A stretch of 64,000 nt of DNA. It comes from Patescibacteria group bacterium. Its GTDB lineage: Bacteria; Patescibacteriota; Patescibacteriia; JAXHNJ01. The notes below the pieces were generated by a model. It saw only the letters and a program-made list of their open reading frames with translations, had not been told where the DNA came from and made no database searches. A program made the translations under genes and the position numbers. The DNA lies in the NCBI GenBank assembly GCA_041649715.1, contig JBAZMP010000001.1, positions 82,741-146,740 on the forward strand. The letters are read 5' to 3'. Below, piece after piece: positions 4,652-52,424 of this stretch; the stretch's first letter is position 1, and each line of letters opens with the position of its first letter.

Positions 4652-4736
4652 GCCGCCGTGGTGAAATTGCCGTGAACCACTAAAGGGTTCACGGCAACCC
4701 CGCACCCTTTAGTGGTGCGGGGTGGTATACACGCAA
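4652..4736 (+). pseudogene. duplicate of tRNA-Leu(TAA) nt 1-30, interrupted in the D-loop by a 55-nt double-hairpin element
   Basis: gccgccgtggtgaaattg at 4652-4669 and gtatacacgcaa at 4725-4736 are identical to positions 1-30 of the tRNA-Leu at 5011. The insert lies at 4670-4724. Confidence 0.8.
4670..4724 (+). repeat. double-hairpin element, copy B (ccgtgaacc-ACTAAAG-ggttcacgg caa ccccgcacc-CTTTAGT-ggtgcgggg)
   Basis: Same architecture and loops as the copies at 316-369 and 52367-52421. Confidence 0.8.
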
Positions 4737-5010: not shown

Positions 5011-5097
5011 GCCGCCGTGGTGAAATTGGTATACACGCAAGACTTAAAATCTTGTGGGAGCAATCCCGTGTCGGTCCGAGTCCGACCGGCGGCACCA
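5011..5097 (+). tRNA. tRNA-Leu, anticodon TAA, type II with a long variable arm; CCA encoded
   Basis: Acceptor gccgccg/cggcggc, anticodon stem caaga/tcttg with loop ctTAAaa, variable arm gggagcaatccc, T-arm gtcggtccgagtccgac, terminal acca. Confidence 0.85.
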
Positions 5098-6992: not shown

Positions 6993-7484
6993 TTACAGTA
7001 TCTCCATTTTTATAACTTTAACTCCCCATTGGATCGCATCTGTCTTGGTGGGCATCCAGATATCGGCGATATATCTGCCTTTGTTGGCTGCCATGCGGTC
7101 AGTCACGGTAAAAACTTTGTCTCCGAATTTTTCCGGAAACCTAACTTTAGTGCCGAAGGGCAGATAATTATAGGCAATAATGCCATCCCGGACTTTTTCT
7201 CCCGAAGCGGTGGTAAAGGGGTCGTTGTCGCATTCTTCACGGCTTGAGGAATAAGCGGTTACCGAAAGCTTGATTATCTTCCGCGGCTGACGATTGGCAA
7301 TTTCAGGCAGTCCGGTCAAGGACTTTATTTTTTCAACCTGCCGATAATCATTTTGATTAAGGATTGATATTTCTTTAGCTTGGACTTTTTCCGTTTGCGG
7401 GAAGAACCAGCTTAATAGACTAAAAAGCGCGATGAACGCAATAATTTTTTCCGGATTAAAGACCAATCGGGCCTTCATCTTCAT
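6993..7484 (-). CDS. 3D-domain protein (MltA/YuiC-like cell-wall hydrolase fold) with an N-terminal membrane anchor
   Basis: TAYSSSREECDNDPFTTASGEKV...GTKV...VTDRMAA...DIW matches the 3D-domain conserved Asp pattern. Confidence 0.6.
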   Translation of the reverse strand: MKMKARLVFNPEKIIAFIALFSLLSWFFPQTEKVQAKEISILNQNDYRQVEKIKSLTGLPEIANRQPRKIIKLSVTAYSSSREECDNDPFTTASGEKVRDGIIAYNYLPFGTKVRFPEKFGDKVFTVTDRMAANKGRYIADIWMPTKTDAIQWGVKVIKMEIL

Positions 7485-9252: not shown

Positions 9253-9447
9253 TATCTAATCAGTGGCTCTGCGCCGCTGAAAAAAATAAATTTATCGTCT
9301 GGAGCCGGTTTTACGAAAAAGTTCGCACCTTTTTCGTCTGACCGGTCGGCGGGCGGCCGGTGCGCGGGGGGGTCGGCCGCCCGCCCTGTCCGCGCTTTTT
9401 CTTAAAAAGCCTTCCTTTTTCGTGCCACGCTTCACGTGGCGCGCCGC
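9253..9447. repeat. inverted repeat copy A of the recombinase-associated repeat; 9297-9423 (127 bp) is 100% identical to the reverse complement of 14483-14609
   Basis: Direct comparison with the reverse complement of 14460-14705. The outer 45 nt are diverged. Contains a 12-bp all-GC hairpin, ggcgggcggccg...cggccgcccgcc, and a terminal hairpin whose stem shows compensatory changes between copies. Confidence 0.85.
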
Positions 9448-9460
9448 AACTATAACAATG

Positions 9461-10045
9461 CTATAAACAATCACTTTTACTTATAGCAAAAAAGAAAGTT
9501 TGAGTTGAGTTTTGCACTTGATAAGAATATTCCATGTTTATATCTTGGTCTAGGAGATTATTCCTTGTTTCTGGTGTTTGGCAAGCATTGGGGGCGATGA
9601 TATTTTTCAGTGACTCATTTGTAAGTTGGCTTGTGTCAATATCATGGAGTGTATAAACATAACGAATTGCATTTGGTTCTGCTAAAATATCAGTCCAAGT
9701 CGTTACCGCATCAACTTGCTGAGGAAGTGTTGATTGGGCTTTTATTTCCTGGACGGATTCCTTGATAATATCCTGTTTAGAGTCGCCCCCTAAAATAGCG
9801 GAAGTACCGTTATATACAACATAACGAGCGACTAAAAATGCCATAATAAAAACTACTATGCCTATAACAGAGCCCACAAGTGATTTAATCTTTTTACTCT
9901 TTTTTCCTGGGGTTTTTTCTGATGTTTTGGGTGTTAATTCAGATTGAACGATTTTACCGCCGCAACTCTTGCAAAATTTTGCATTATCATTATTTTCGTT
10001 ACCACAATTTTTACAATATATTTTTTTCTCTTCGGTATTAGTCAT
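9461..10045 (-). CDS. zinc-ribbon membrane protein: N-terminal CxxC-x-CxxC, one transmembrane helix, extracytoplasmic C-terminal domain
   Basis: CKNCGNENNDNAKFCKSCG followed by a hydrophobic helix. Confidence 0.45.
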   Translation of the reverse strand: MTNTEEKKIYCKNCGNENNDNAKFCKSCGGKIVQSELTPKTSEKTPGKKSKKIKSLVGSVIGIVVFIMAFLVARYVVYNGTSAILGGDSKQDIIKESVQEIKAQSTLPQQVDAVTTWTDILAEPNAIRYVYTLHDIDTSQLTNESLKNIIAPNACQTPETRNNLLDQDINMEYSYQVQNSTQTFFFAISKSDCL

Positions 10046-10226
10046 AAATTAGTAATTAAATATTATTTTATTTATTCTGCACGGCTAGGCTCCAGATAGC
10101 AAGCTTGATTTTATTAGGTAGGTTTTTAAGGGTATAGTATTTTTTGTGTACCGCTCTTGTCCCGTCGGATGACGGGATCACGGGGCGCGCCGCAATGGAT
10201 ATAAAAAATTGGTTAGGGTTTCTATG

Positions 10227-11102
10227 TTAATTCATTATATTATTATTTCGGAAAATATCAAGAAACGAGGGAGTTGCATGACCAAAAGAGTATGAAGCGT
10301 TTAGGGTTTCTATATATGCCTGTTCTTTATATATTTTTAGTAATTTTTTCCCCTCATCAGTAATTGGCACCTCTTTCTCATTGATTTTTATTACCTTATA
10401 GCCACTCACAATTGATACAAGGCGGCCAGTCCTGATATCAAAAATTGGGCCACCACTATTTCCAGGGTTGAAAGCCATTGTAAATTCATATAGGTATTTA
10501 TCTTTAGAAGTTTGATATCTACAGTTAATAACACCCTTGTCGACCCTAAGTAGTATGTTACCAATTAATGGTTTACTTAAATCATTATTGGCAAAATCCA
10601 ATTTGCACAAAGGATATCCCAAAACACCAACTTCCGACCCAATCGGTAAAAAATCTTTTGAGATTCTAACAAAATCATTTCTATCTGCTAATATTTTGTC
10701 GTCAACCTGATAGAATTCCTTATCTAAATTAAATATTGCTAAGTCAATCTCGGGGAAAATAAACAAATCTTTATTTATTTTTGGTTCATAAATTCTATAG
10801 TGCCAACTATTATCATCGTCGTGTTTTAACAAATAATATTTGTCACCATCATGGTGCTGAGACGACTCATCTTTTTGAGTATTACTAACAACATGAGCAG
10901 CGGTTAATAATTTCTCCTGTGCTGCCACAAAACCAGTCCCAAGTGTGGTCCACCTAATTACTTGTTGATCGTTAATTTTTTCACTTCTACCACGTACAAT
11001 TATATAAACTGATTTTTTTAGCCACCTCACACATTCAGAAAATGAATGAAATTTTTCTGGTCTTTTTGGGATTCTGATTTTTTTATCTTTTGACATATTC
11101 AC
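10227..11102 (-). CDS. trypsin-like (S1 family) serine protease
   Basis: Catalytic triad context TAAHVV (His), DLAIF (Asp) and GNSGGPIF (Ser). Confidence 0.7.
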   Translation of the reverse strand: MNMSKDKKIRIPKRPEKFHSFSECVRWLKKSVYIIVRGRSEKINDQQVIRWTTLGTGFVAAQEKLLTAAHVVSNTQKDESSQHHDGDKYYLLKHDDDNSWHYRIYEPKINKDLFIFPEIDLAIFNLDKEFYQVDDKILADRNDFVRISKDFLPIGSEVGVLGYPLCKLDFANNDLSKPLIGNILLRVDKGVINCRYQTSKDKYLYEFTMAFNPGNSGGPIFDIRTGRLVSIVSGYKVIKINEKEVPITDEGKKLLKIYKEQAYIETLNASYSFGHATPSFLDIFRNNNIMN

Positions 11103-11135
11103 AACTTTAAAGGTGGGTTATTAAAAATCAATAAA

Positions 11136-13067
11136 CTACCTTTGGAATTTTTTTTCAACTAAGAATTTATGAATTTTATGCCCATATTGATTAACAAGCC
11201 TATTATGTTGGACGCTCACGGCGGCTGATGCCTCACCTAAAAATGGTTCCCCACTTTCAATTTTTCTTTTAGCAATTTCACGACAAACTGCTTCAACAAC
11301 TAGTTCAGCAAGCATAACTTGGCAGTGTCCTTCTTCTTGATTTTCGCCCTGTGGGCCAAAATACATTTCTACAGACGGTGCTTTTGTCGCAATAATTACT
11401 TGGCCACTAGATTGCTCAAACCTAACCCTTTGACGAGGATCAGCAATAGGACTGAAAGTAATTTCTCTAAATAAACCAGCTTTCTTTTTATCTGTAGGTT
11501 CTGGCGTTTTTCTTTTTGAAATGACTTTTACTAATGCCTCTGCTTGCAAGTTATTTGCAATTGCAGTGATTACTCCTTCTGCACCAACTTGTTTACCAAT
11601 AACATGGATCTGTGTAGTTACAATACCGCTTTCATCAGCACCTTTCTCATTTAGTACTATTTTAGGATTTATGACAATAACATTGTTATTGTCACTATTA
11701 ATTTTTATGGTCGCTCCAGGCGGTAATTTTAGGGGAACGATTACTTTAAGAGTAAGAGTTGCTTGGCAATCGACTACTAATTGACTATAGTCAGGGACAA
11801 AATCAAATCCATTTGGAGGTGGTTCATTAATAGTACCCTCCGACCCACCTGTCCCTTCGCCTTTAGTGTCTTCTAGCTCTAATTTAGCAATTTTATTTAA
11901 TTCAGGAAGGGCTGATTGAAAACGTTTTCTTGTTTTCTCACTCTCTAATTTATTTTCACTTTCTTTAGCCAATTTTTCCTCGTCTTTAACAAATTTTTCA
12001 ACTTCCTTACTAATTATTTGGTCAAGCGCTTTTGAAAAATTATCAGTCCAGTCTATGCCTTGTCGATCTGATCTAATAATTGGCCTTTGTTCTACTCTTA
12101 ATAGATGGTCAATATAATCTACGACTGCCCTTCCGTATAATCTTACGGCGTATATATTACCTTCAAATTTTTTAGTTAGTGTAATATCAAGAACCGCGCC
12201 CTTGGATTTTACTAAAATCCCGCTTTCCCTTAGCGGCCCTTCGTCATCATAGCTACTTAGTGGTTCATCAGACCTATAGAGTTCCAGATCAATTTTTGCC
12301 GCATTATAACCCGGCACAGTAAGTTCAGTATGCTCATATAATTTCCCTTTTGGTAATATATACGATAGTTCCTCTTGCCTTTTAATTTTCTCTCTCCCAT
12401 TCTTTTCGATTAGGACTACTTCTCTCATTTTGCTGCTCATTATGTCTCGCAGACTATAATAATGCTCCAATTGCCTTTTTAAATTATCATATTGCGGAAT
12501 TCTAATTTGAGAATTTAGAGCTTTTAGAGTTATACAGGTTCCGTTACTCTCAATTCCGATATCTTTTCGCATCTGTTTTGTGACTTTACATGGTATATAG
12601 CGTTTATAGTTAAGATGTTCAAGAATGCATTTGTTATACGATTGCTCTATAACTGATTCAACGGTACCATAACCAAAAGCGATCATGGCTTCTTTTAATC
12701 CTCTGCCCCAATACCCTCTTCCAGCTTGTTCTTCCGTAAATTCACTTGTATCGCCACCATATTCAGCGACGCGCTCATCCATCTTAAACTCATTAAAACC
12801 CTCGGCATAATCGATTACTCGCACTACTGATCCTTGACGTTTTCTGATAAGTTCAATTATTATTTTTCCACTATTTTTAATATTTTTATTCTCAAGTCGT
12901 CGATAGGAGTCATCACAATTTGTGATTAACTCAATAAGTGCCAAAACCGCATTATTTTTAATTGTGGCTCTAGCTTGTTGTTCGGCAACACGTTGATGTA
13001 AGTGAATTTGTTTATTGACTGCGATGTCCATAAAATTAATTCTTAATTTTGCGTCTATGCATGCCAC
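11136..13067 (-). CDS. GHKL-superfamily (HATPase_c-like) ATPase domain protein, 643 aa, with a long uncharacterised C-terminal region
   Basis: Bergerat-fold motifs: N-box ELITNCDDS, G1-like IDYAEGF, G2 GRGYWGRGLKEA. Confidence 0.55.
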   Translation of the reverse strand: MACIDAKLRINFMDIAVNKQIHLHQRVAEQQARATIKNNAVLALIELITNCDDSYRRLENKNIKNSGKIIIELIRKRQGSVVRVIDYAEGFNEFKMDERVAEYGGDTSEFTEEQAGRGYWGRGLKEAMIAFGYGTVESVIEQSYNKCILEHLNYKRYIPCKVTKQMRKDIGIESNGTCITLKALNSQIRIPQYDNLKRQLEHYYSLRDIMSSKMREVVLIEKNGREKIKRQEELSYILPKGKLYEHTELTVPGYNAAKIDLELYRSDEPLSSYDDEGPLRESGILVKSKGAVLDITLTKKFEGNIYAVRLYGRAVVDYIDHLLRVEQRPIIRSDRQGIDWTDNFSKALDQIISKEVEKFVKDEEKLAKESENKLESEKTRKRFQSALPELNKIAKLELEDTKGEGTGGSEGTINEPPPNGFDFVPDYSQLVVDCQATLTLKVIVPLKLPPGATIKINSDNNNVIVINPKIVLNEKGADESGIVTTQIHVIGKQVGAEGVITAIANNLQAEALVKVISKRKTPEPTDKKKAGLFREITFSPIADPRQRVRFEQSSGQVIIATKAPSVEMYFGPQGENQEEGHCQVMLAELVVEAVCREIAKRKIESGEPFLGEASAAVSVQHNRLVNQYGHKIHKFLVEKKFQR

Positions 13068-13704
13068 CTACGTATTTTTTATCTAACTCCATAGGTGAGT
13101 TAAGCAGCCTGGAGAATCTCGTTTCGCACATTTTAAGAAATTCTACCAAGTCATTTCTGTTATAATCTTCGACAGCTTCAAATAATTGTTGTAAGTTTTT
13201 TCTCCTCGTTTCCGGAAGGGAATCGAGGGTACAGTATATTAAATCACAAAACTCAAATTCGGATATCTTTATTGTATTTCCAACTCTAAGATACTCTTTA
13301 TATTTACTATTTTCTTCCAGTTGTTTAACTAATCGACCACTTTTTGTCCTTCGGTCGCCTTTAATCGCAAGTAGTTTCTTTGTGTCTATTTCGTGAGCTC
13401 CAAGAACTTTACGAATCTTTTGAACGATATTTAAACCTCGGCCCGTAATTTCGAATCCCTGAGCCTTACTGCCTGTAATTAAGCCTTTGTCTGTTCTACA
13501 TCTTAACCAACATTTTTCAACCTGAGATGAATCAGGATATTTTGAAATATAACCAGGCAATCCGAATCTTTGTGGAAAAAGCTCATAACATTCAACAACA
13601 AGATTCTCAAAGTTTGTTACTTTATTCCTCTGGATTAATGAGTATAAGGCAAATACTAATAAATCATCATAAGGAATTTTATTATAAATTTTTGGGTCAA
13701 ACAT
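13036..13704 (-). CDS. hypothetical protein, 222 aa, in an operon with the GHKL ATPase
   Basis: ORF overlaps the downstream gene by about 30 nt, suggesting translational coupling. No motif recognised. Confidence 0.4.
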   Translation of the reverse strand: MFDPKIYNKIPYDDLLVFALYSLIQRNKVTNFENLVVECYELFPQRFGLPGYISKYPDSSQVEKCWLRCRTDKGLITGSKAQGFEITGRGLNIVQKIRKVLGAHEIDTKKLLAIKGDRRTKSGRLVKQLEENSKYKEYLRVGNTIKISEFEFCDLIYCTLDSLPETRRKNLQQLFEAVEDYNRNDLVEFLKMCETRFSRLLNSPMELDKKYVGGMHRRKIKN

Positions 13705-13712
13705 AATATTAT

Positions 13713-13952
13713 CTATTTAAGCTTAAATCTTTGATCTTTGGTTGTGTGGTGAAATTTTGATTTAACGTCGCGGACCATTTTTTCAATAGAATCAAAAATT
13801 TTTCGGACATCACTTTCCGTATAATCATATGCTTGACGATTCGCACAATTCCCTAAAATCATAAGTTTATTTAAAACTTCATTTGTTCTGTATTCGGCAA
13901 GTCTTTTAAATCTATCTGCTTTTGACTCGTTAATTGGGGGTTTGGGTTTCAT
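13713..13952 (-). CDS. hypothetical small basic protein, 79 aa
   Basis: Tightly spaced within the minus-strand operon. Confidence 0.35.
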   Translation of the reverse strand: MKPKPPINESKADRFKRLAEYRTNEVLNKLMILGNCANRQAYDYTESDVRKIFDSIEKMVRDVKSKFHHTTKDQRFKLK

Positions 13953-14130
13953 TGTATTTTTTTAAATCTTAAATTATTGAATTACTTATGAGTTTACTTA
14001 AAGGTTAAAAAATGGTTATATCATCTAAAAATTAGTCTAATACCATTAGTAATCATTGTCAAGATATAATATTGTGGATAACTAAAAAAGACCGAATTAA
14101 ATCGGCTAATATTAGCGAAAAAATACTATT

Positions 14131-14352
14131 CTAATTAATAAAGTAATAAATCTGCTTTTTATATATTTCGGCAAAGCGCTTTAATTCAATAATATCCACT
14201 CTTTGGTCCCCCGCCTCAACCTTTGATATATAGGATTGAGGCTCTTTAAGTTTATTGGCGACCTGTATTTGGGTTAATCCGGCCTCAATACGAGCTTTTT
14301 TTAGCTTTTGGATCAGTTTTTTATACTCTTCAAAATATATTGTGCTTGACAT
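14131..14352 (-). CDS. XRE-family helix-turn-helix transcriptional regulator
   Basis: LTQIQVANKLKEPQSYISKVEAG is a typical Cro/C1 HTH. Direct repeats ttctaattttgaatat and tcttaatttgaatat lie upstream at about 14360-14395. Confidence 0.7.
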   Translation of the reverse strand: MSSTIYFEEYKKLIQKLKKARIEAGLTQIQVANKLKEPQSYISKVEAGDQRVDIIELKRFAEIYKKQIYYFIN

Positions 14353-14459
14353 GGTTATATGATATATTCAAATTAAGAATATTCAAAATTAGAATATTAC
14401 AAAAGGGGAGTAAAGACGTGCGTATGGGTGGGCGGGGCAAACGTTAAGAGGTTTAAAAG

Positions 14460-14705
14460 CGGCGCATCTCCCGAAGGGAGATACGAAAAAGGAAGGCTTT
14501 TTAAGAAAAAGCGCGGACAGGGCGGGCGGCCGACCCCCCCCGCGCACCGGCCGCCCGCCGACCGGTCAGACGAAAAAGGTGCGAACTTTTTCGTAAAACC
14601 GGCTCCAGTTCGTAAATTGCGATTTTTTTGTGGCGAATAACCACTGATTAGATAATAAAATTAGGGCTTTTTGCCCGAAGACTTGGAAGTTCGACACCCG
14701 CGACG
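14460..14705. repeat. inverted repeat copy B: inverted relative to both copy A (9253-9447) and copy C (16139-16229)
   Basis: Reverse complement of 14483-14609 equals 9297-9423. Reverse complement of 14609-14705 equals 16139-16229 over about 92 bp. Confidence 0.85.
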
Positions 14706-14773
14706 ACGGGGGGCTCCGCCGGAGGCGGAGCAGCCAATTTTTCTAAGTTTAAATAAAAGCGAAAGCGACAACT

Positions 14774-16237
14774 ATGAAATATTTAATTTACGCCAGAAAA
14801 TCAACGGACGAGGACGACCGGCAAGTATTGTCCATAGAATCGCAAATAACAGAATTAAGAGAATTTGCCGTCAAGGAAAATTTAGAAATTATTGATGAAT
14901 ACATAGAAAGCAAGACGGCCAAAGCGCCCGGTCGTCCTCTTTTTAATAAAATGATAGAACGAATTGAAAAAAACGGTCCCATGGGAATTTTGGCGTGGCA
15001 TCCCGACCGATTGGCGAGAAACAGCATTGACGGAGGGAAAATTATTTATTTGGTTGATACCGGCAAAATCGGCGGTTTAAAGTTTCCCACTTTTTGGTTT
15101 GATGCCACGCCGCAGGGAAAATTCATGCTTAATATCGCTTTCGGCCAGAGCAAATACTATATTGATAACTTGTGTGAAAACATCAAGCGCGGCATACGCC
15201 AGAAATTAAGAAGAGGCGAATGGCCAGGGCTCGCGCCATTAGGGTATCTCAACGAATTGCGCCACCATACAATTATTAAAGACCCCGAGCGTTGGCCCAT
15301 AGTCAAAAAACTCTTTGAGGCGTATGCCGCGGGCAATCATACTTTGGAAAGTTTAAAACAGTTGTCGCTTTCGCTGGGCTTGGTGAGCCGAAGGTCCGGA
15401 AAACCGATAGTCATCACGATACTTTCGGATATGCTGACCAATCCGTTTTATTACGGCGTATTCGAGCACAGCGGTGAAATGCACCAGGGGACGCACGAGC
15501 CGATCATTACCAAACGGCTTTTTGACGCCGTTCAAAAAATCCATAATACCAAGCGCAAGACAAGAGTAAGAAAAGAGCTGATTCCTTTCGCTTTCCGAGG
15601 CGTATTTACCTGCGGCGAGTGCGGCCGAATGATTACGGCGGAAAGAAAGAAAAAGCCGTCAGGATTGAAATATATTTATTACCGCTGTACGAAAAAGAAT
15701 GTTGTTTGTTCCCAGAAATTCCTGGAAGAAAGGCGATTGGTCAGCCAGATTAATAAAACTATTGCGAGCGTCGCCCTTCCCGAAGATTGGAAAGACAAGA
15801 TGATAAAAAGGGTTGACGAAGAGATAAAGCAAGCTAAAACCAAACATCAAGGCGAGATTGTAGTGTTAAAAAATGAGCAAGCTAAGTTAGAATCAAAGCT
15901 TTTGCGACTGCTTGACGAACGGCTTGATCAGGCAATTTCCAAGCAGATTTTTTCCCAAGCAAAACAAAAAATCGTCAACCGGCAGGTTGAGATTAAAGAA
16001 TTGTTGGATGGGTTTAAACGGAAGGGCGACGCTCGGCTCGAACTCTTTAAAGAGTGGATTTTAGAGGCTCACCAAGCCCCTTTTATCGCAAAGCAGGAAA
16101 ATTTAGAAGTTAAGAGAAATTATATACAAAAAATTGGCTCGAACTTCCAAGTCTTCGGGCAAAAAGCCCTAATTTTATTATCTAATCAGTGGTTATTCGC
16201 CACAAAAAAATCGCAATTTACGAACTGGAGCGGGTGA
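14774..16237 (+). CDS. large serine recombinase (resolvase/integrase family with recombinase domain, zinc ribbon and coiled coil)
   Basis: N-terminal YARKSTDEDDRQVLSIESQ with the catalytic Ser-containing motif; recombinase domain. C-terminal Cys cluster CGECG...YYRC. The last roughly 30 codons lie inside repeat copy C. Confidence 0.75.
   Translation: MKYLIYARKSTDEDDRQVLSIESQITELREFAVKENLEIIDEYIESKTAKAPGRPLFNKMIERIEKNGPMGILAWHPDRLARNSIDGGKIIYLVDTGKIGGLKFPTFWFDATPQGKFMLNIAFGQSKYYIDNLCENIKRGIRQKLRRGEWPGLAPLGYLNELRHHTIIKDPERWPIVKKLFEAYAAGNHTLESLKQLSLSLGLVSRRSGKPIVITILSDMLTNPFYYGVFEHSGEMHQGTHEPIITKRLFDAVQKIHNTKRKTRVRKELIPFAFRGVFTCGECGRMITAERKKKPSGLKYIYYRCTKKNVVCSQKFLEERRLVSQINKTIASVALPEDWKDKMIKRVDEEIKQAKTKHQGEIVVLKNEQAKLESKLLRLLDERLDQAISKQIFSQAKQKIVNRQVEIKELLDGFKRKGDARLELFKEWILEAHQAPFIAKQENLEVKRNYIQKIGSNFQVFGQKALILLSNQWLFATKKSQFTNWSG
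16139..16229. repeat. inverted repeat copy C: a 92-bp perfect inverted partner of 14609-14705, ending at the CCA end of tRNA-Gly(GCC)
   Basis: Direct comparison. The repeat stops at ctggagc, overlapping the tRNA 3' terminus. Confidence 0.85.
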
Positions 16238-16301
16238 GCGGAGTCGAACCGCCGACCTTCTCCTTGGCAAGGAGACGTTCTAGCCACTGAACTACACCCG
16301 C
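16226..16301 (-). tRNA. tRNA-Gly, anticodon GCC, discriminator U; CCA encoded
   Basis: Reverse complement gives acceptor gcgggtg/cacccgc, anticodon stem tctcc/ggaga with loop ttGCCaa, T-arm ggcggttcgactccgct, terminal tcca. Confidence 0.85.
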
Positions 16302-16312
16302 ATGGTTTTTTA

Positions 16313-16384
16313 AGGTCACGGGCGGATTCGAACCGCCGAATAACGGTTTTGCAGACCGTTGCCTTACCACTTGGCTACGTGACC
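16313..16384 (-). tRNA. tRNA-Cys, anticodon GCA, discriminator U; no CCA
   Basis: Acceptor ggtcacg/cgtgacc, anticodon stem acggt/accgt with loop ctGCAaa, T-arm ggcggttcgaatccgcc. Confidence 0.85.
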
Positions 16385-52347: not shown

Positions 52348-52424
52348 GTGAGCGTAGAGGGATTCGCCTTGAACTACTGAAGAGTTCACGGCTGCCCCGA
52401 ACCCTTTAGTGGTTTGGGGCGAAC
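52348..52424 (-). pseudogene. tRNA-Lys 3' fragment (copy of the acceptor 3' strand and T-arm) interrupted in the T-loop by a 55-nt double-hairpin element
   Basis: gtgagcgtagagggattcg at 52348-52366 plus aac at 52422-52424 match gtgagcgcagagggattcgaac of the intact gene at 52466-52487. The insert lies at 52367-52421. Confidence 0.75.
52367..52421 (+). repeat. double-hairpin element, copy C (ccttgaact-ACTGAAG-agttcacgg ct gccccgaacc-CTTTAGT-ggtttggggc)
   Basis: The loop 1 A-to-G change still pairs with loop 2 through G:U. The stem 2 changes are compensatory. Confidence 0.8.

Follow-up and report, generated by a model that had tools for sequence, protein, structure and literature searches.

The 64,000-nt stretch of Patescibacteria DNA analyzed here (the window) probably carries a small integrated island of non-phage character that a large serine recombinase (LSR) inserted at the 3' end of a tRNA-Gly(GCC) gene. 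Of the three repeat copies that delimit and subdivide this island, copy A would be its attL, copy C its attR, and copy B an attP in inverted orientation. This attP-doubled layout recurs in most related loci of Patescibacteria and appears to be undescribed. The original prediction had noticed the repeats and proposed either a recombinase-controlled inversion switch or an integrative element; the observation is confirmed and its interpretation partly supported.

Repeat copies, integrase gene, and target tRNA

A repeat search of the window recovered copies A, B, and C where they had been placed, as pairs of inverted arms of 120 nt with 88% identity (9253-9372/14535-14654), 82 nt with 89% identity (9366-9447/14459-14540), and 97 nt with 99% identity (14598-14694/16139-16235). 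A 28-nt probe from the shared part matched the window twice with 0 matches expected, and the three copies are far beyond chance. In a three-way comparison, the only block common to all of them is a TGGAGC core, around which copy A is organized as D_old-core-M, copy B as M'-core-D' (inverted), and copy C as D-core-tRNA-Gly (Table 1). The core takes in the CCA end of the tRNA, whose final GCTCCA consists of two acceptor-stem bases, the discriminator, and CCA.

Table 1. Features of the island and its target site (positions in the window).
Feature	Position	Strand	Basis or remark
D_old, outer (B-side) arm of putative attL	9253..9299	+	relic, last ~17 codons of earlier L001-like integrase gene
Core TGGAGC of copy A (putative attL crossover region)	9300..9305	+	three-way comparison
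M_A, putative P'-type arm and structured extension	9306..9447	+	same as M_B over 9299-9421 save one G indel
Cargo operon, six genes	9461..14352	-	ORF calls
Cargo gene, Zn-ribbon membrane protein	9461-10045	-	Pfam Zn_Ribbon_1
Cargo gene, trypsin-like protease	10227-11102	-	Pfam Trypsin_2
Cargo genes, proteins of 79 aa, 222 aa, and 643 aa	within 9461..14352	-	ORFs
Cargo gene, HTH	14131-14352	-	Pfam HTH_3
M_B, inverted M copy	14459..14601	-	B-type terminal hairpin ATCTCCC..GGGAGAT
Core TGGAGC of copy B (putative internal attP)	14602..14607	-	
D', inverted duplicate of last 29 integrase codons; putative P arm of internal attP	14608..14694	-	97-nt, 99% repeat
GC-rich double-hairpin insert, 37 nt	14695..14731	.	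splits B's copy of GGCT^CGAAC motif
LSR, 487 aa	14774..16237	+	Pfam Resolvase, Recombinase, Zn_ribbon_recom
D, last 29 integrase codons; putative P arm of attR	16140..16225	+	
Core TGGAGC of copy C	16226..16231	+	reverse complement of GCTCCA, last six bases of tRNA-Gly
tRNA-Gly(GCC), target gene	16226..16301	-	ARAGORN, Rfam
tRNA-Cys(GCA), upstream partner of tRNA-Gly	16313..16384	-	kept in L001, L002, L105, L106

Several borders differ from those originally drawn. The central 127 bp of A and B, described as fully identical, are two identical blocks (9299-9366 and 9367-9421) separated by a one-base length difference in a run of G (7 versus 8), and the B/C pair is perfect as stated but 93 nt rather than 92 bp long (16139-16231), with a single mismatch at 16232. 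Instead of ending exactly at the CCA, copy C overlaps the last 6-10 nt of tRNA-Gly (16226-16235), and beyond bracketing the recombinase gene it is the last 29 codons of the gene itself. Positions 9253-9299, the outermost 47 nt of copy A, had been counted into the A/B repeat but are the relic of a different integrase 3' end, more like the D of related locus L001 (85% identical; translation SNQWLCAAEKNKFIVWS versus NQWLCAAEKFKFSDWS in L001) than the present D of the window (74%). The terminal hairpins of A and B do differ as reported, and the same distinction between A-type and B-type hairpins is kept in two other genomes, L001 and L002.

In M_A, TTCGCAC at +17 from the core is accompanied by the palindrome GACCGGTC and a 12-bp GC hairpin, and the A-type terminal hairpin (GCCACG..CGTGGC) is followed by GCGCCGC. 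At the other end of B, homology to the integrase 3' end resumes beyond the insert in AGCCAATTTT (14732-14741), ~30 nt upstream of the integrase ATG. At the inner edge of D lies a conserved GGC TCG AAC motif (16136-16144), the TCG codon of which is invariant in 28 of 28 loci while TCG accounts for 15% of the Ser codons in the rest of these genes. R8, S10, DRLARN, and four Cys of the integrase are invariant, and its AF2 model, with a predicted helical hairpin at 337-418, best matches SPbeta-type, Bxb1, PhiC31, and A118 integrases in the PDB; the tail encoded by D (residues 457-487) is modelled with pLDDT < 50. The TGA stop codon (16235-16237) lies inside the acceptor stem of tRNA-Gly.

As predicted, A and B flank an operon of six ORFs in inverted orientation. 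PADLOC matches in this cargo comprise an HTH controller, RT-Protease_XI, and a PDC-M35A protease. The genome had been called AT-rich, but the window has ~45% GC and only the cargo is low (32-37%). A second assembly of the window population (L091) has the same gene order with both M arms at corresponding positions.

Attachment-site geometry and a proposed route of integration

Among 37 relatives, a TTCGAAC-like heptamer starts at +12 in the tRNA arm (30/37) and at +17 in the M arm (26/37), and in 33 of the 37 the M-arm heptamer is exactly 5 bp farther from the core than its counterpart; at the remaining four loci the script's best match differs, and by eye their M arms have TCAGAAC at +17. This shift matches the published geometry of serine integrases, where the zinc-domain motif occupies attP positions 16-24 and is moved 5 bp toward the centre in attB (Rutherford et al. 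2013, PMC3783163). In the window, the T-loop DNA of tRNA-Gly (GTCGAAC, + strand) sits at +12 like a B'-type arm, and the D arm of the candidate attP has TTGCGAT at offset 16, so that this site is pseudo-palindromic. A three-way comparison of 15 loci placed the point where A/B identity begins and B/C identity stops within a core of 3-10 nt, mostly 3-6 nt. Based on arm geometry and common core, we read copy A as attL, copy C as attR, and copy B as a whole second attP between cargo and integrase. An integrative element at the tRNA-Gly 3' end, as originally suggested, thus finds support in this geometry, in the direct-repeat junctions at A and C with their common 6-bp core, in an integrase gene that abuts the tRNA, in a cargo that varies from relative to relative and is lower in GC, and in the unoccupied tRNA-Gly of a syntenic relative (L106). 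The outer (X) arms of attL have no motif in common across the loci compared, which is unusual for an attB half-site. Farther out, the M arm has a conserved palindrome at ~+38-50, and its GC hairpin keeps 96-100% identity between clades. An attP needs ~50 bp, far less than the 100-370 bp over which identity is perfect.

We propose that the zinc-ribbon domain of the integrase would read the TTCGAAC-like heptamer, with the T-loop of the tRNA offering it 12 bp from the core (attB-type) and the M arm mimicking it 5 bp farther out (attP-type). Strand exchange would then take place within the 3-6-bp core at tRNA positions ~71-73, leaving a tRNA gene that stays whole and gains an element-encoded CCA and trailer. 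The free circle would hold one long repeat unit (D-M) twice, in inverted orientation; one copy would be used for integration and thereby split into A and C while the other stays intact as B, giving the "nested" repeats. Were either attP of such a circle usable, about half of the insertions would be expected to be flipped, but four of the 80 loci are, so either the copy at the gene 3' end is preferred or the flipped state is selected against. Gene conversion or homologous exchange may keep the copies identical, and homologous exchange may now and then invert the integrase or cargo module, producing states that are seen in relatives. Copy B could be a live attP able to attack a second tRNA gene; its competence is supported by L042, where tRNA-Ser flanks the integrase module on both sides. 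Being within the upstream region of the integrase gene, copy B could also let bound integrase regulate its own expression. The cargo would be an exchangeable defence-type operon.

Layout, occupancy, and ancestry among relatives

At least 586 relatives were confirmed from the 600 pattern matches listed among GTDB species genomes. Near-perfect inner repeats surround the integrase in 68 of 80 related loci (median arm length 127 nt; 47 loci with at least 98% and 34 with 100% identity) and end at the 3' end of tRNA-Gly, Gln, Asn, Ser, Ala, Arg, or Asp, while an outer repeat of 114-370 nt is present in 15 of the 28 loci with enough flank. Integrase proteins are only ~50% identical family-wide, and 34/68 loci with perfectly identical arms make the ongoing homogenization of copies that had been postulated a reasonable inference. 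Relatives in IMG/VR number only two and phage and plasmid collections gave no match above 30% identity; judged by these collections, the island is not phage-borne. Its cargo looks variable and defence-like across the family (1.3-8.5 kb, low GC); compared with L001, the HTH and 79-aa proteins of the window are 69% and 76% identical and the rest differs.

An empty site in a relative, the check proposed alongside the original prediction, was found in syntenic L106 (tRNA-Cys/tRNA-Gly(gcc)); the tRNA-Gly site is occupied in L105, L002, and L003. Neither an excised circle nor an empty site in the same population was seen, and an exact-match metagenome search had no matches. No recombination directionality factor was identified. 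Compared with the window, L002 has 72% identity for integrase and 67% for trigger factor, and L105 has 91% (over the C-terminal 150 aa only) and 82%; since integrase identity tracks host identity, long residence fits as well as mobility.

The repeat unit, integrase body, and cargo of the window are shown to have separate histories. The ratio of informative sites at which the window agrees with L001 to those at which it agrees with L002 is 232:111 for the integrase body, 5:15 for D, and 3:36 for M (Fisher 5e-15), and M is 93% identical to L002 and 76% to L001 with the reverse seen in the integrase body, indicating that the repeat unit and the integrase body differ in ancestry.

Alternative readings of the repeats

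A programmed inversion switch, in which the integrase acts as invertase on its own gene (between B and C), on the cargo (between A and B), or on both, is unlikely in our view. Expression would be toggled, e.g., between an integrase convergent with the tRNA operon (off) and one downstream of it (on), and the recombinase would lie within its own repeat-bounded segment as in the Salmonella Hin system. Two adjacent inverted-repeat pairs with near-perfect arms in most relatives fit such a switch, and the inner arms are identical, so that inversion would regenerate the same sites and could be reversible without a directionality factor. By arm type, however, they are attP, attR, and attL, and characterized serine integrases do not recombine such pairings (PMC3783163). 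Because the candidate promoters of the cargo are within its own segment, they would not be switched by its inversion. All data are metagenome assemblies in which repeat-flanked segments may be wrongly oriented, and within them the two assemblies of the window population and 10 contigs of another species (P0027) have the canonical orientation only. The tRNA 3' end is at the distal arm, its canonical position, in 43/80 loci and at the integrase 5' end in 4/80 (L015, L028, L045, L053), while L016 has inverted cargo beside a canonical integrase. These flipped states leave some room for inversion, yet the flipped contigs all stop at the far repeat arm and could equally be double-tRNA arrangements like L042. 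Altogether, the data do not support switching as the primary function.

We also think it improbable that the integrase and its sites form a resident platform, fixed at the tRNA for long times while M-cargo-M' cassettes or D-M units are swapped, a natural analogue of recombinase-mediated cassette exchange or an integron. Cargo between inverted sites is indeed the layout of engineered cassette exchange, and the same locus is occupied in the window, L105, L002, and L003 by integrases that track host proteins next to wholly different cargo. The L002-like M of the window would fit as well, as would distal M modules that are 87-93% identical between elements with 53-62% identical integrases and different target tRNAs. 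Against this, the site is empty in L106, the D_old relic at A indicates replacement of an entire earlier element or of its integrase, and the L001-like HTH and 79-aa genes of the window beside L002-like M arms imply that the repeat moved and not a cassette; exchange would also depend on either attP x attP-type reactions or ordinary homologous recombination. That M is (also) a structured RNA gene or leader is very unlikely; A and B would then be two ~150-nt RNA genes that have a tRNA-like 3' end in a common tRNA-Gly downstream region, or M would be a 5' leader that controls the integrase. Both strands of copy B fold better than shuffled sequence (z -3.7 and -3.0), the terminal and GC hairpins keep their structure by compensatory changes between genomes, and M_B has a promoter-like site (14367-14395) on one side and the integrase ATG on the other; yet Rfam has no family match, promoter-like sites are no commoner than in shuffled sequence, the "shared downstream region" belongs to the integrase gene as its coding 3' end, and the first ~25 nt of M are probably accounted for by an integrase-binding arm. 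The GC hairpin moreover is found in both orientations with respect to the core, which argues against a strand-specific RNA. Scarcely credible, finally, is B as something that an earlier insertion, inverted or tandem, left behind without function. Such relics exist, with D_old in copy A of the window and a complete D copy at A in L016, and arms are decaying in some relatives (82-92% identical), but the arrangement spans clades targeting seven tRNA types, half of its loci have fully identical arms, and 21 of 32 relatives carry the two-hairpin insert at the same position of B, with a length of ~36-42 nt (~63 nt in L007/L008).

Repeat copies and attachment-site geometry

The best-supported reading of this locus is an integrated serine-integrase island whose attP region is present in two inverted copies. 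A repeat search and base-by-base reading located all three repeat copies where the original prediction had placed them, i.e., A at the outer end of the cargo operon, B inverted between this operon and the integrase gene, and C at tRNA-Gly(GCC) (see table). The pairing of A with B was likewise correct in that they form one repeat, though a single-base indel in a G-run splits its arms into 9253-9372/14535-14654 and 9366-9447/14459-14540. The inverted arms shared by B and C (14598-14694/16139-16235) span 97 nt with one mismatch, and a 28-nt probe from the shared part of the repeat gave two matches versus zero expected. Read base by base, the copies combine four kinds of arms around a single core, TGGAGC: the integrase 3'-end arm D, the structured arm M (142 bp at full length), the tRNA, and the outer 47 nt of copy A left from an earlier integrase (D_old). 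Read on the opposite strand, the core gives the six 3'-terminal bases of tRNA-Gly, CCA included, and the tRNA itself is intact (70 bits in Rfam). Copies A and C lie in direct orientation with CTGGAGC common to both, as expected for the ends of an integrated element, and B is inverted relative to both. Where it can be compared, the outer arm of A often lacks TGG beside the core, which means that the D arm of the element gives the tRNA gene its encoded CCA. Gene order and the positions of both M arms are matched by a second, independent assembly of this population (L091).

Features of the repeat copies, integrase, and cargo in the window and in related loci
Locus	Feature	Coordinates	Description
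Window	Copy A	D_old 9253-9299; core 9300-9305; M 9306-9447	read base by base
Window	Copy B	M 14601-14459; core 14607-14602; D 14694-14608	opposite strand; read base by base
Window	Copy C	D 16140-16225; core 16226-16231; then tRNA-Gly(GCC)	read base by base
Window	A-type hairpin		GCCACGCTTCACGTGGC, next to the core in M_A
Window	B-type hairpin		ATCTCCCTTCGGGAGAT, next to the core in M_B
Window	Inner edge of repeat	16136-16144 and 14692-14735	codons GGC TCG AAC
Window	Insert in copy B	14695-14731	37 nt
Window	Integrase gene	14774-16237	ORF of 487 aa
Window	Cargo, from A to B		six genes on the strand opposite the integrase: HTH, 79 aa, 222 aa, 643 aa, trypsin-like protease, zinc-ribbon membrane protein
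Window	M-arm palindrome	9338-9345	GACCGGTC
L001	M-arm palindrome		TGAATTCA
L014	M-arm palindrome		ATCCGGAT
L010	M-arm palindrome		AAATCCGC..GCGGATTT
L001	Repeat around cargo		146 nt, around 4.9 kb with HTH, HATPase_c_3, and pP_pnuc_1 genes
L001	Repeat around integrase		92 nt, perfect, ends at tRNA-Gly(gcc)
L002	Repeats and cargo		layout as L001; cargo has a type IIG restriction-modification gene

In 15 loci with all three junctions, the points where A/B identity begins and B/C identity ends fall in a shared core of 3-10 nt, in most cases 3-6 nt (CTG, GCTG, GCGG, GTGG, TGGAGC, and others), which occupies the discriminator base and the last acceptor pairs of the tRNA. On the tRNA arm, the T-loop DNA sequence TTCGAAC or a one-off variant of it starts at +12 in 30 of 37 loci and at +10 or +11 in the rest. 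The same heptamer starts at +17 of the M arm in 26 of these loci and at +15 or +16 in seven more; in the window, TTCGCAC lies at +17 of M. The shift between both arms is exactly 5 bp in 33/37 loci; for the other four the script chose a different match, and by eye their M arms carry TCAGAAC at +17. Rutherford et al. placed the zinc-domain motif at 16-24 of the attP half-site and 5 bp nearer to the centre in attB (PMC3783163). The 5-bp shift matches this geometry and thus marks M as a P'-type arm and the tRNA as a B'-type arm. The arm types thus identify C (D|tRNA) as attR, A (outer arm|M) as attL, and B (D|M) as a complete attP. In the clade of the window, D carries TTGCGAT at offset 16, which makes D|M a pseudo-palindromic attP. 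Across the whole family no motif is position-specific in the left arms (D and X); TT[CG]CG.T is found at offset 16-17 in some clades only, including that of the window. We also considered that M might be a tRNA-like or tmRNA-like gene, given its 3' end ACCGGCTCCA and a T-arm-like hairpin, and rejected this idea when neither ARAGORN nor Rfam returned a match; the tRNA-like look of M is attributed to the predicted integrase-binding motif.

In the circle that we infer for the island, two attP copies would separate an integrase module from a cargo module. Integration via one copy would split it into A and C and leave B intact, which would account for the nested repeats. The empty site would then read ...AAATTTATCGTC-TGGAGC-GGGTGAGCGGAGTCG, and the circle junction would read from the integrase 3' end through TGGAGCCGGT into M with the A-type hairpin.

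The integrase and the modules of its repeat unit

The D arm is not a spacer but consists of the last 29 codons of the integrase gene, with the stop codon inside the tRNA acceptor stem. The D-encoded tail is genuine coding sequence, as homologues of 484-493 aa can be aligned with it up to their last residues (...KIGSNF...WSG). Pfam identifies the three domains of large serine recombinases, i.e., Resolvase (E 1e-18), Recombinase, and Zn_ribbon_recom. Residues R8 and S10 and the DRLARN motif are invariant among 28 homologues, consistent with a resolvase-type catalytic domain with serine nucleophile, and the zinc-ribbon cysteines C280, C283, C305, and C312 are invariant, too. At the sequence level, the enzyme matches the C-terminal domain of A118 integrase in the PDB (4kis). 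An AlphaFold2 model (mean pLDDT 69) predicts that the zinc-ribbon strands are followed by long helices in antiparallel arrangement (337-384 and 390-418), and this predicted hairpin (337-418) corresponds to the coiled-coil motif within the zinc-ribbon domain; the D-encoded tail (457-487) is predicted with low confidence. The best fold matches of the model in the PDB are full-length integrases of the SPbeta type, Bxb1, and PhiC31 (E 2e-15 to 5e-9). The enzyme thus belongs among the large serine recombinases and shows all of their sequence and site features that were tested.

How its reading frame ends depends on integration, with ...NWSG* beside the tRNA and ...NWSRFYEKVRTFFV* beside M. The tail read through D|M is RFYEKVRTFFV in the window and the related locus L002 and CFYRKVRTFFL in L001. 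A conserved alternative C-terminus was nevertheless rejected, as L007 from another clade reads the same DNA motif in a different frame, and it is therefore the DNA and not the peptide that is conserved. No directionality factor was identified for the element; a candidate for this role or that of a regulator is the small HTH gene beside B (73-aa protein).

The repeat unit contains several further conserved modules. Its inner edge corresponds to the codons GGC TCG AAC (G-S-N) in most loci, and the use of TCG in 28 out of 28 cases compared to 15% of serine codons elsewhere in these genes indicates a constraint on the DNA. Copy B has this motif interrupted, at GGCT^CGAAC, by ca. 36-42 nt (ca. 63 nt in L007 and L008) of inserted sequence; the insert was located in 21 of 32 loci and consists of two short hairpins, a form that is kept while the sequence varies by clade. 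The insert sets B apart from the real 3'-end copy of the gene, and this difference might explain the prevailing single orientation. Elements with different tRNA targets and 53-62% identity between their integrases share 87-93% identity in the distal 105-125 nt of M (M arms of L029, L039, L050, and L016). Within distant elements, a GC hairpin of 31-45 nt with G6/C6 loops (G6-N3-G6 or C6) is 96-100% identical and appears in either orientation, e.g., at L001 4681-4720 compared to L044 95-134 and 1801-1840; searches of IMG/VR with both hairpin patterns gave no exact match. Many M arms additionally carry a palindrome of 8-20 nt and variable sequence ca. 31-50 nt from the core, which could be a binding site of the variable HTH protein encoded beside copy B. 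Elsewhere in the window, a 42-nt GC-rich hairpin-forming sequence is present in two inverted copies of 79% identity (4675-4716 and 52373-52414), ca. 300 nt upstream of tRNA-Leu(taa) and ca. 50 nt past the 3' end of tRNA-Lys, respectively. The tRNA spacers of the related loci L105 and L106 are also rich in such hairpins, so the GC hairpin of the repeat is not the only one of its kind in these genomes. When the surroundings of A, B, and C were scanned for promoters and terminators, matches were no more common than in shuffled sequence.

The ancestry of this repeat unit differs from that of the gene next to it. M of the window is 93% identical to M of L002 and 76% to that of L001, whereas the integrase gene is closer to L001 (82.3%) than to L002 (76.7%). 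At informative sites, i.e., positions where L001 and L002 differ, the window agrees with L001 over L002 by 232 to 111 in the integrase body, compared to 5 to 15 in D and 3 to 36 in M (body versus D and M, Fisher 5e-15). L002-like bases also prevail at the first dozen informative sites, which extend from the 5' untranslated region to the first codons, and the HTH and 79-aa cargo genes of the window are L001-like. The ratios of body, D, and M together with the L001-like cargo indicate that the repeat unit D|M, in all of its copies, has an ancestry apart from the integrase body and the cargo. Gene conversion or homologous exchange is the simplest explanation for why the copies are identical, and modules would rarely be inverted as a side effect.

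Relatives, insertion history, and cargo

The window derives from a Patescibacteria MAG, and the contexts of three close homologues have the same nested repeats around differing cargo: L001, L002 (see table), and a third contig with a reverse transcriptase and bAvd. A scan of one genome per species (GTDB species genomes) showed that the integrase family is widespread, with at least 586 relatives confirmed among the 600 pattern matches listed, and 80 loci were kept for scripted self-comparison and tRNA detection. Counting repeats of at least 45 nt, an inner inverted repeat surrounds the integrase in 68 of the 80 loci (median 127 nt, range 49-178), with at least 98% identity in 47 of them and 100% in 34. 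In 43/80 loci, its distal arm runs up to the 3' end of a convergent tRNA, with tRNA-Ala (12), Ser (11), Gln (10), Asn (5), Gly (2), Arg (2), and Asp (1) as targets. Where more than 3 kb of upstream sequence is available (28 loci), the cargo is enclosed in 15 cases by a second repeat (114-370 nt) directly adjoining the first; contigs frequently break at the repeats. Judging from these sequences, the integrases appear to recognize tRNA genes by their near-universal T-loop sequence, with related clades retargeted to seven tRNA types. These clades form a natural series for studying how serine-integrase specificity is reprogrammed and provide candidate enzymes for insertion into tRNA genes that are of practical interest for genome engineering. 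Two tRNA regions deserve separate mention. In the closed genome CP174360.1 (L027), the target tRNA gene (11466-11800) is interrupted by a group I intron (Rfam RF00028, 71.6 bits), which is why ARAGORN missed it. In L107, GC-rich hairpin inserts and a GIY-YIG ORF break up the tRNA-Cys region (11900-12231), and a second tRNA-Cys begins where the contig ends; a homing endonuclease or mini-insert may have invaded a tRNA gene here.

That an element had inserted at the 3' end of tRNA-Gly, one of the two readings in the original prediction, is supported by the direct junctions A and C, the variable low-GC cargo, and an empty site in a relative, L106 (GCA_034520665.1), where no integrase follows tRNA-Gly(gcc). 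This locus was reached through homologues of the flanking phosphoesterase and has the same flanks as the window (trigger factor, phosphoesterase, inositol phosphatase, tRNA-Cys, and tRNA-Gly(gcc)) in a distantly related genome (trigger factor 65% identical). An empty site in the same species was not found, with no match for the 3' half of tRNA-Gly in exact searches of metagenome contigs for such a site or for alternative junctions in the same population, and a trigger-factor search gave no useful syntenic contig. At the same tRNA, L105 carries an integrase that is 91% identical over the 150 residues present. The site also seems to have had an earlier occupant: D_old encodes SNQWLCAAEKNKFIVWS and is 85% identical to D of L001 and 74% to the window's own D, which marks it as a relic of a different integrase tail. 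Such a relic is what would be left by a new element entering the attR of an older one that is subsequently lost, and L016 has a similar but longer relic at A. We considered and rejected an inversion of the left flank as a by-product of the island, since this flank shows no synteny between the window, L001, and L002 within the available sequence; its comparison suggests that the chromosomes were rearranged with a breakpoint close to the island. In the window, a 163-aa gene (6993-7484) lies to the left of the island and its homologue in L001 (12070-12597) to the right of tRNA-Cys, and tRNA-Leu(taa) lies on opposite strands in the window (5011-5097) and L002 (3492-3578).

The cargo of the window has 32-37% GC compared to ca. 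45% for the window as a whole. In PADLOC, its HTH protein matches controllers of defense systems, and its protease matches PDC-M35A as well as the protease portion of RT-Protease_XI. Among relatives, the cargo spans 1.3-8.5 kb with 29-49% GC, lies mainly on the strand opposite the integrase, and differs between the window, L001, L002, L108, and the contig encoding the related protein P0003. The latter (JGI 3300075153) has an integrase of 84% identity next to genes for an HTH protein, a reverse transcriptase, and bAvd, which is the signature of a diversity-generating retroelement. HTH genes of 65-85 aa belong to one family in 11 of 23 loci and usually adjoin B, with those of the window and L001 forming a further related pair; few other cargo genes are common to several loci, including relatives of the L002 methyltransferase. 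Genes for phage structure, replication, or transfer were absent from the Pfam families matched in the window cargo and recorded in the gene tables of five relatives. To our knowledge, almost nothing is known about gene movement in Patescibacteria, in which few plasmids or prophages have been recognized, and our data point to tRNA 3' ends as hotspots of defense genes in these organisms.

A phage or plasmid origin of the family was rejected. IMG/VR contains two relatives among 2.9 million contigs and lacks the hairpin motifs, and the best matches in collections of phages and plasmids are at most 30% identical. In one of these two IMG/VR contigs, of 21.6 kb (L085, IMGVR_UViG_3300025323_000028), the integrase 3' end runs directly into an M-type GC hairpin without a tRNA (1-1800), which could be a free or flipped form.

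Orientation, the second attP, and known systems

The repeats had initially suggested a recombinase-controlled inversion switch, which is probably not the primary function. Arguing against frequent flipping, both assemblies of the window population as well as ten contigs of the species encoding P0027 show the canonical state only. The flipped arrangement, with the tRNA at the integrase 5' end and co-directional, is found in 4/80 genome loci (L015, L028, L045, and L053). At L028, the sequence beside the tRNA corresponds, in reverse complement, to D of the canonical relative L014, and L016 has inverted cargo next to a canonical integrase. In L042, the integrase module lies between two convergent tRNA-Ser genes (gct and gga; 53-142 and 1955-2044), an arrangement that apparently arose when the internal attP recombined with another tRNA gene. 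An obligatory second attP that is identical to the split copy departs from the picture of serine integrases with one attP and one attB, and it raises questions of directionality, autoregulation, and module exchange. Its presence fits a live attP in the integrated state, as L042 would illustrate, but also an operator before the integrase gene or a partner in reactions outside the classical attP x attB rule. If either attP copy could be used freely, such a strong excess of the canonical orientation would not be expected, and the length of M with its extra conserved modules argues for more than a minimal attP.

A more radical explanation would be a new operating mode of serine integrases in which one arm (M or tRNA) is recognized, no directionality factor is needed, M provides accessory modules, and the whole forms a natural platform for cassette exchange. 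D would be identical in both partners, and every reaction between an M-site and a tRNA-site would regenerate the same two site types. Inversion of the enzyme's own gene (B x C) as well as excision (A x C) and re-insertion of the island could thereby proceed without a directionality factor, and res-like accessory sites would be provided by the GC hairpin, the second motif copy or palindrome, and the inner-edge sequence GGCTCGAAC of the repeat. If true, this platform would circulate defense genes among Patescibacteria, though we regard it as improbable and favor the integrated island with its attP region in two inverted copies.

In comparison with known systems, this island resembles a tRNA-associated integrative island in the way it works, while its likeness to Hin, the 2-micron plasmid, or Mx8 and SSV1 concerns single features. 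Tycheposons of Prochlorococcus, integrative mobilizable elements, and tRNA-associated genomic or defense islands also insert at tRNA 3' ends and leave the tRNA intact, carry small variable cargo of lower GC content, are polymorphic for presence or absence, and show signs of serial insertion at the same tRNA. However, these elements mostly use tyrosine integrases with att identity blocks spanning tens of tRNA bases, compared to a serine integrase, a core of 3-6 bp, and long flanking repeats in inverted rather than direct orientation here. The enzyme itself resembles the integrases of A118/LI, Bxb1, PhiC31, and SPbeta (SprA), sharing the three-domain organization with coiled-coil insertion and the short crossover core. 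As in phage-type serine integrases generally, one motif is found in both partners and lies 5 bp further out in attP, and the integrase gene adjoins one end of the integrated element. Unlike those systems, the island targets tRNA 3' ends via the T-loop sequence (with seven tRNA types by clade), uses the integrase's own coding 3' end as the P arm of attP, retains a second full attP in inverted orientation, has repeat units of 200-500 bp rather than ca. 50 bp, and comes without phage genes or an identified directionality factor, at no more than 30% identity to the phage and plasmid integrases searched. Full-text literature searches, with subscription journals outside their coverage, found neither a serine integrase family targeting tRNA 3' ends via the T-loop nor an integrated element keeping an inverted second attP.

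Salmonella Hin and the phage invertases Gin, Cin, and Pin likewise have a serine recombinase gene within an inverted-repeat segment, and both orientations exist among relatives. Yet these enzymes of ca. 190 aa have a C-terminal HTH and act at identical 26-bp sites with a Fis-bound enhancer, in contrast to a 487-aa integrase, differing outer arms (M versus tRNA), and one strongly dominant orientation in our case. The circle inferred for the island would resemble the yeast 2-micron plasmid, where FLP/FRT lies in two 599-bp inverted repeats, in having two long identical inverted repeats that each hold the site of the recombinase and separate two unique segments, one of them encoding this enzyme. 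FLP is, however, a tyrosine recombinase on an autonomous replicon, whereas no replication gene was found on the island. In myxophage Mx8 (intP/attP) and fusellovirus SSV1, the crossover is also at or inside the coding 3' end of the integrase and changes how the frame ends, but these are tyrosine integrases, and the alternative tail of the island is not kept as a peptide between clades while the DNA motif is. Finally, engineered PhiC31 cassette exchange and integrons share with the island exchangeable cassettes between inverted recombination sites beside a dedicated recombinase gene. The former pairs attP-flanked targets with attB-flanked donors, whereas the island cassette has P'-type arms at both ends; integrons use the tyrosine integrase IntI with attI and folded single-stranded attC sites, compared to a serine recombinase and inverted repeat ends of 140-370 bp in the island.
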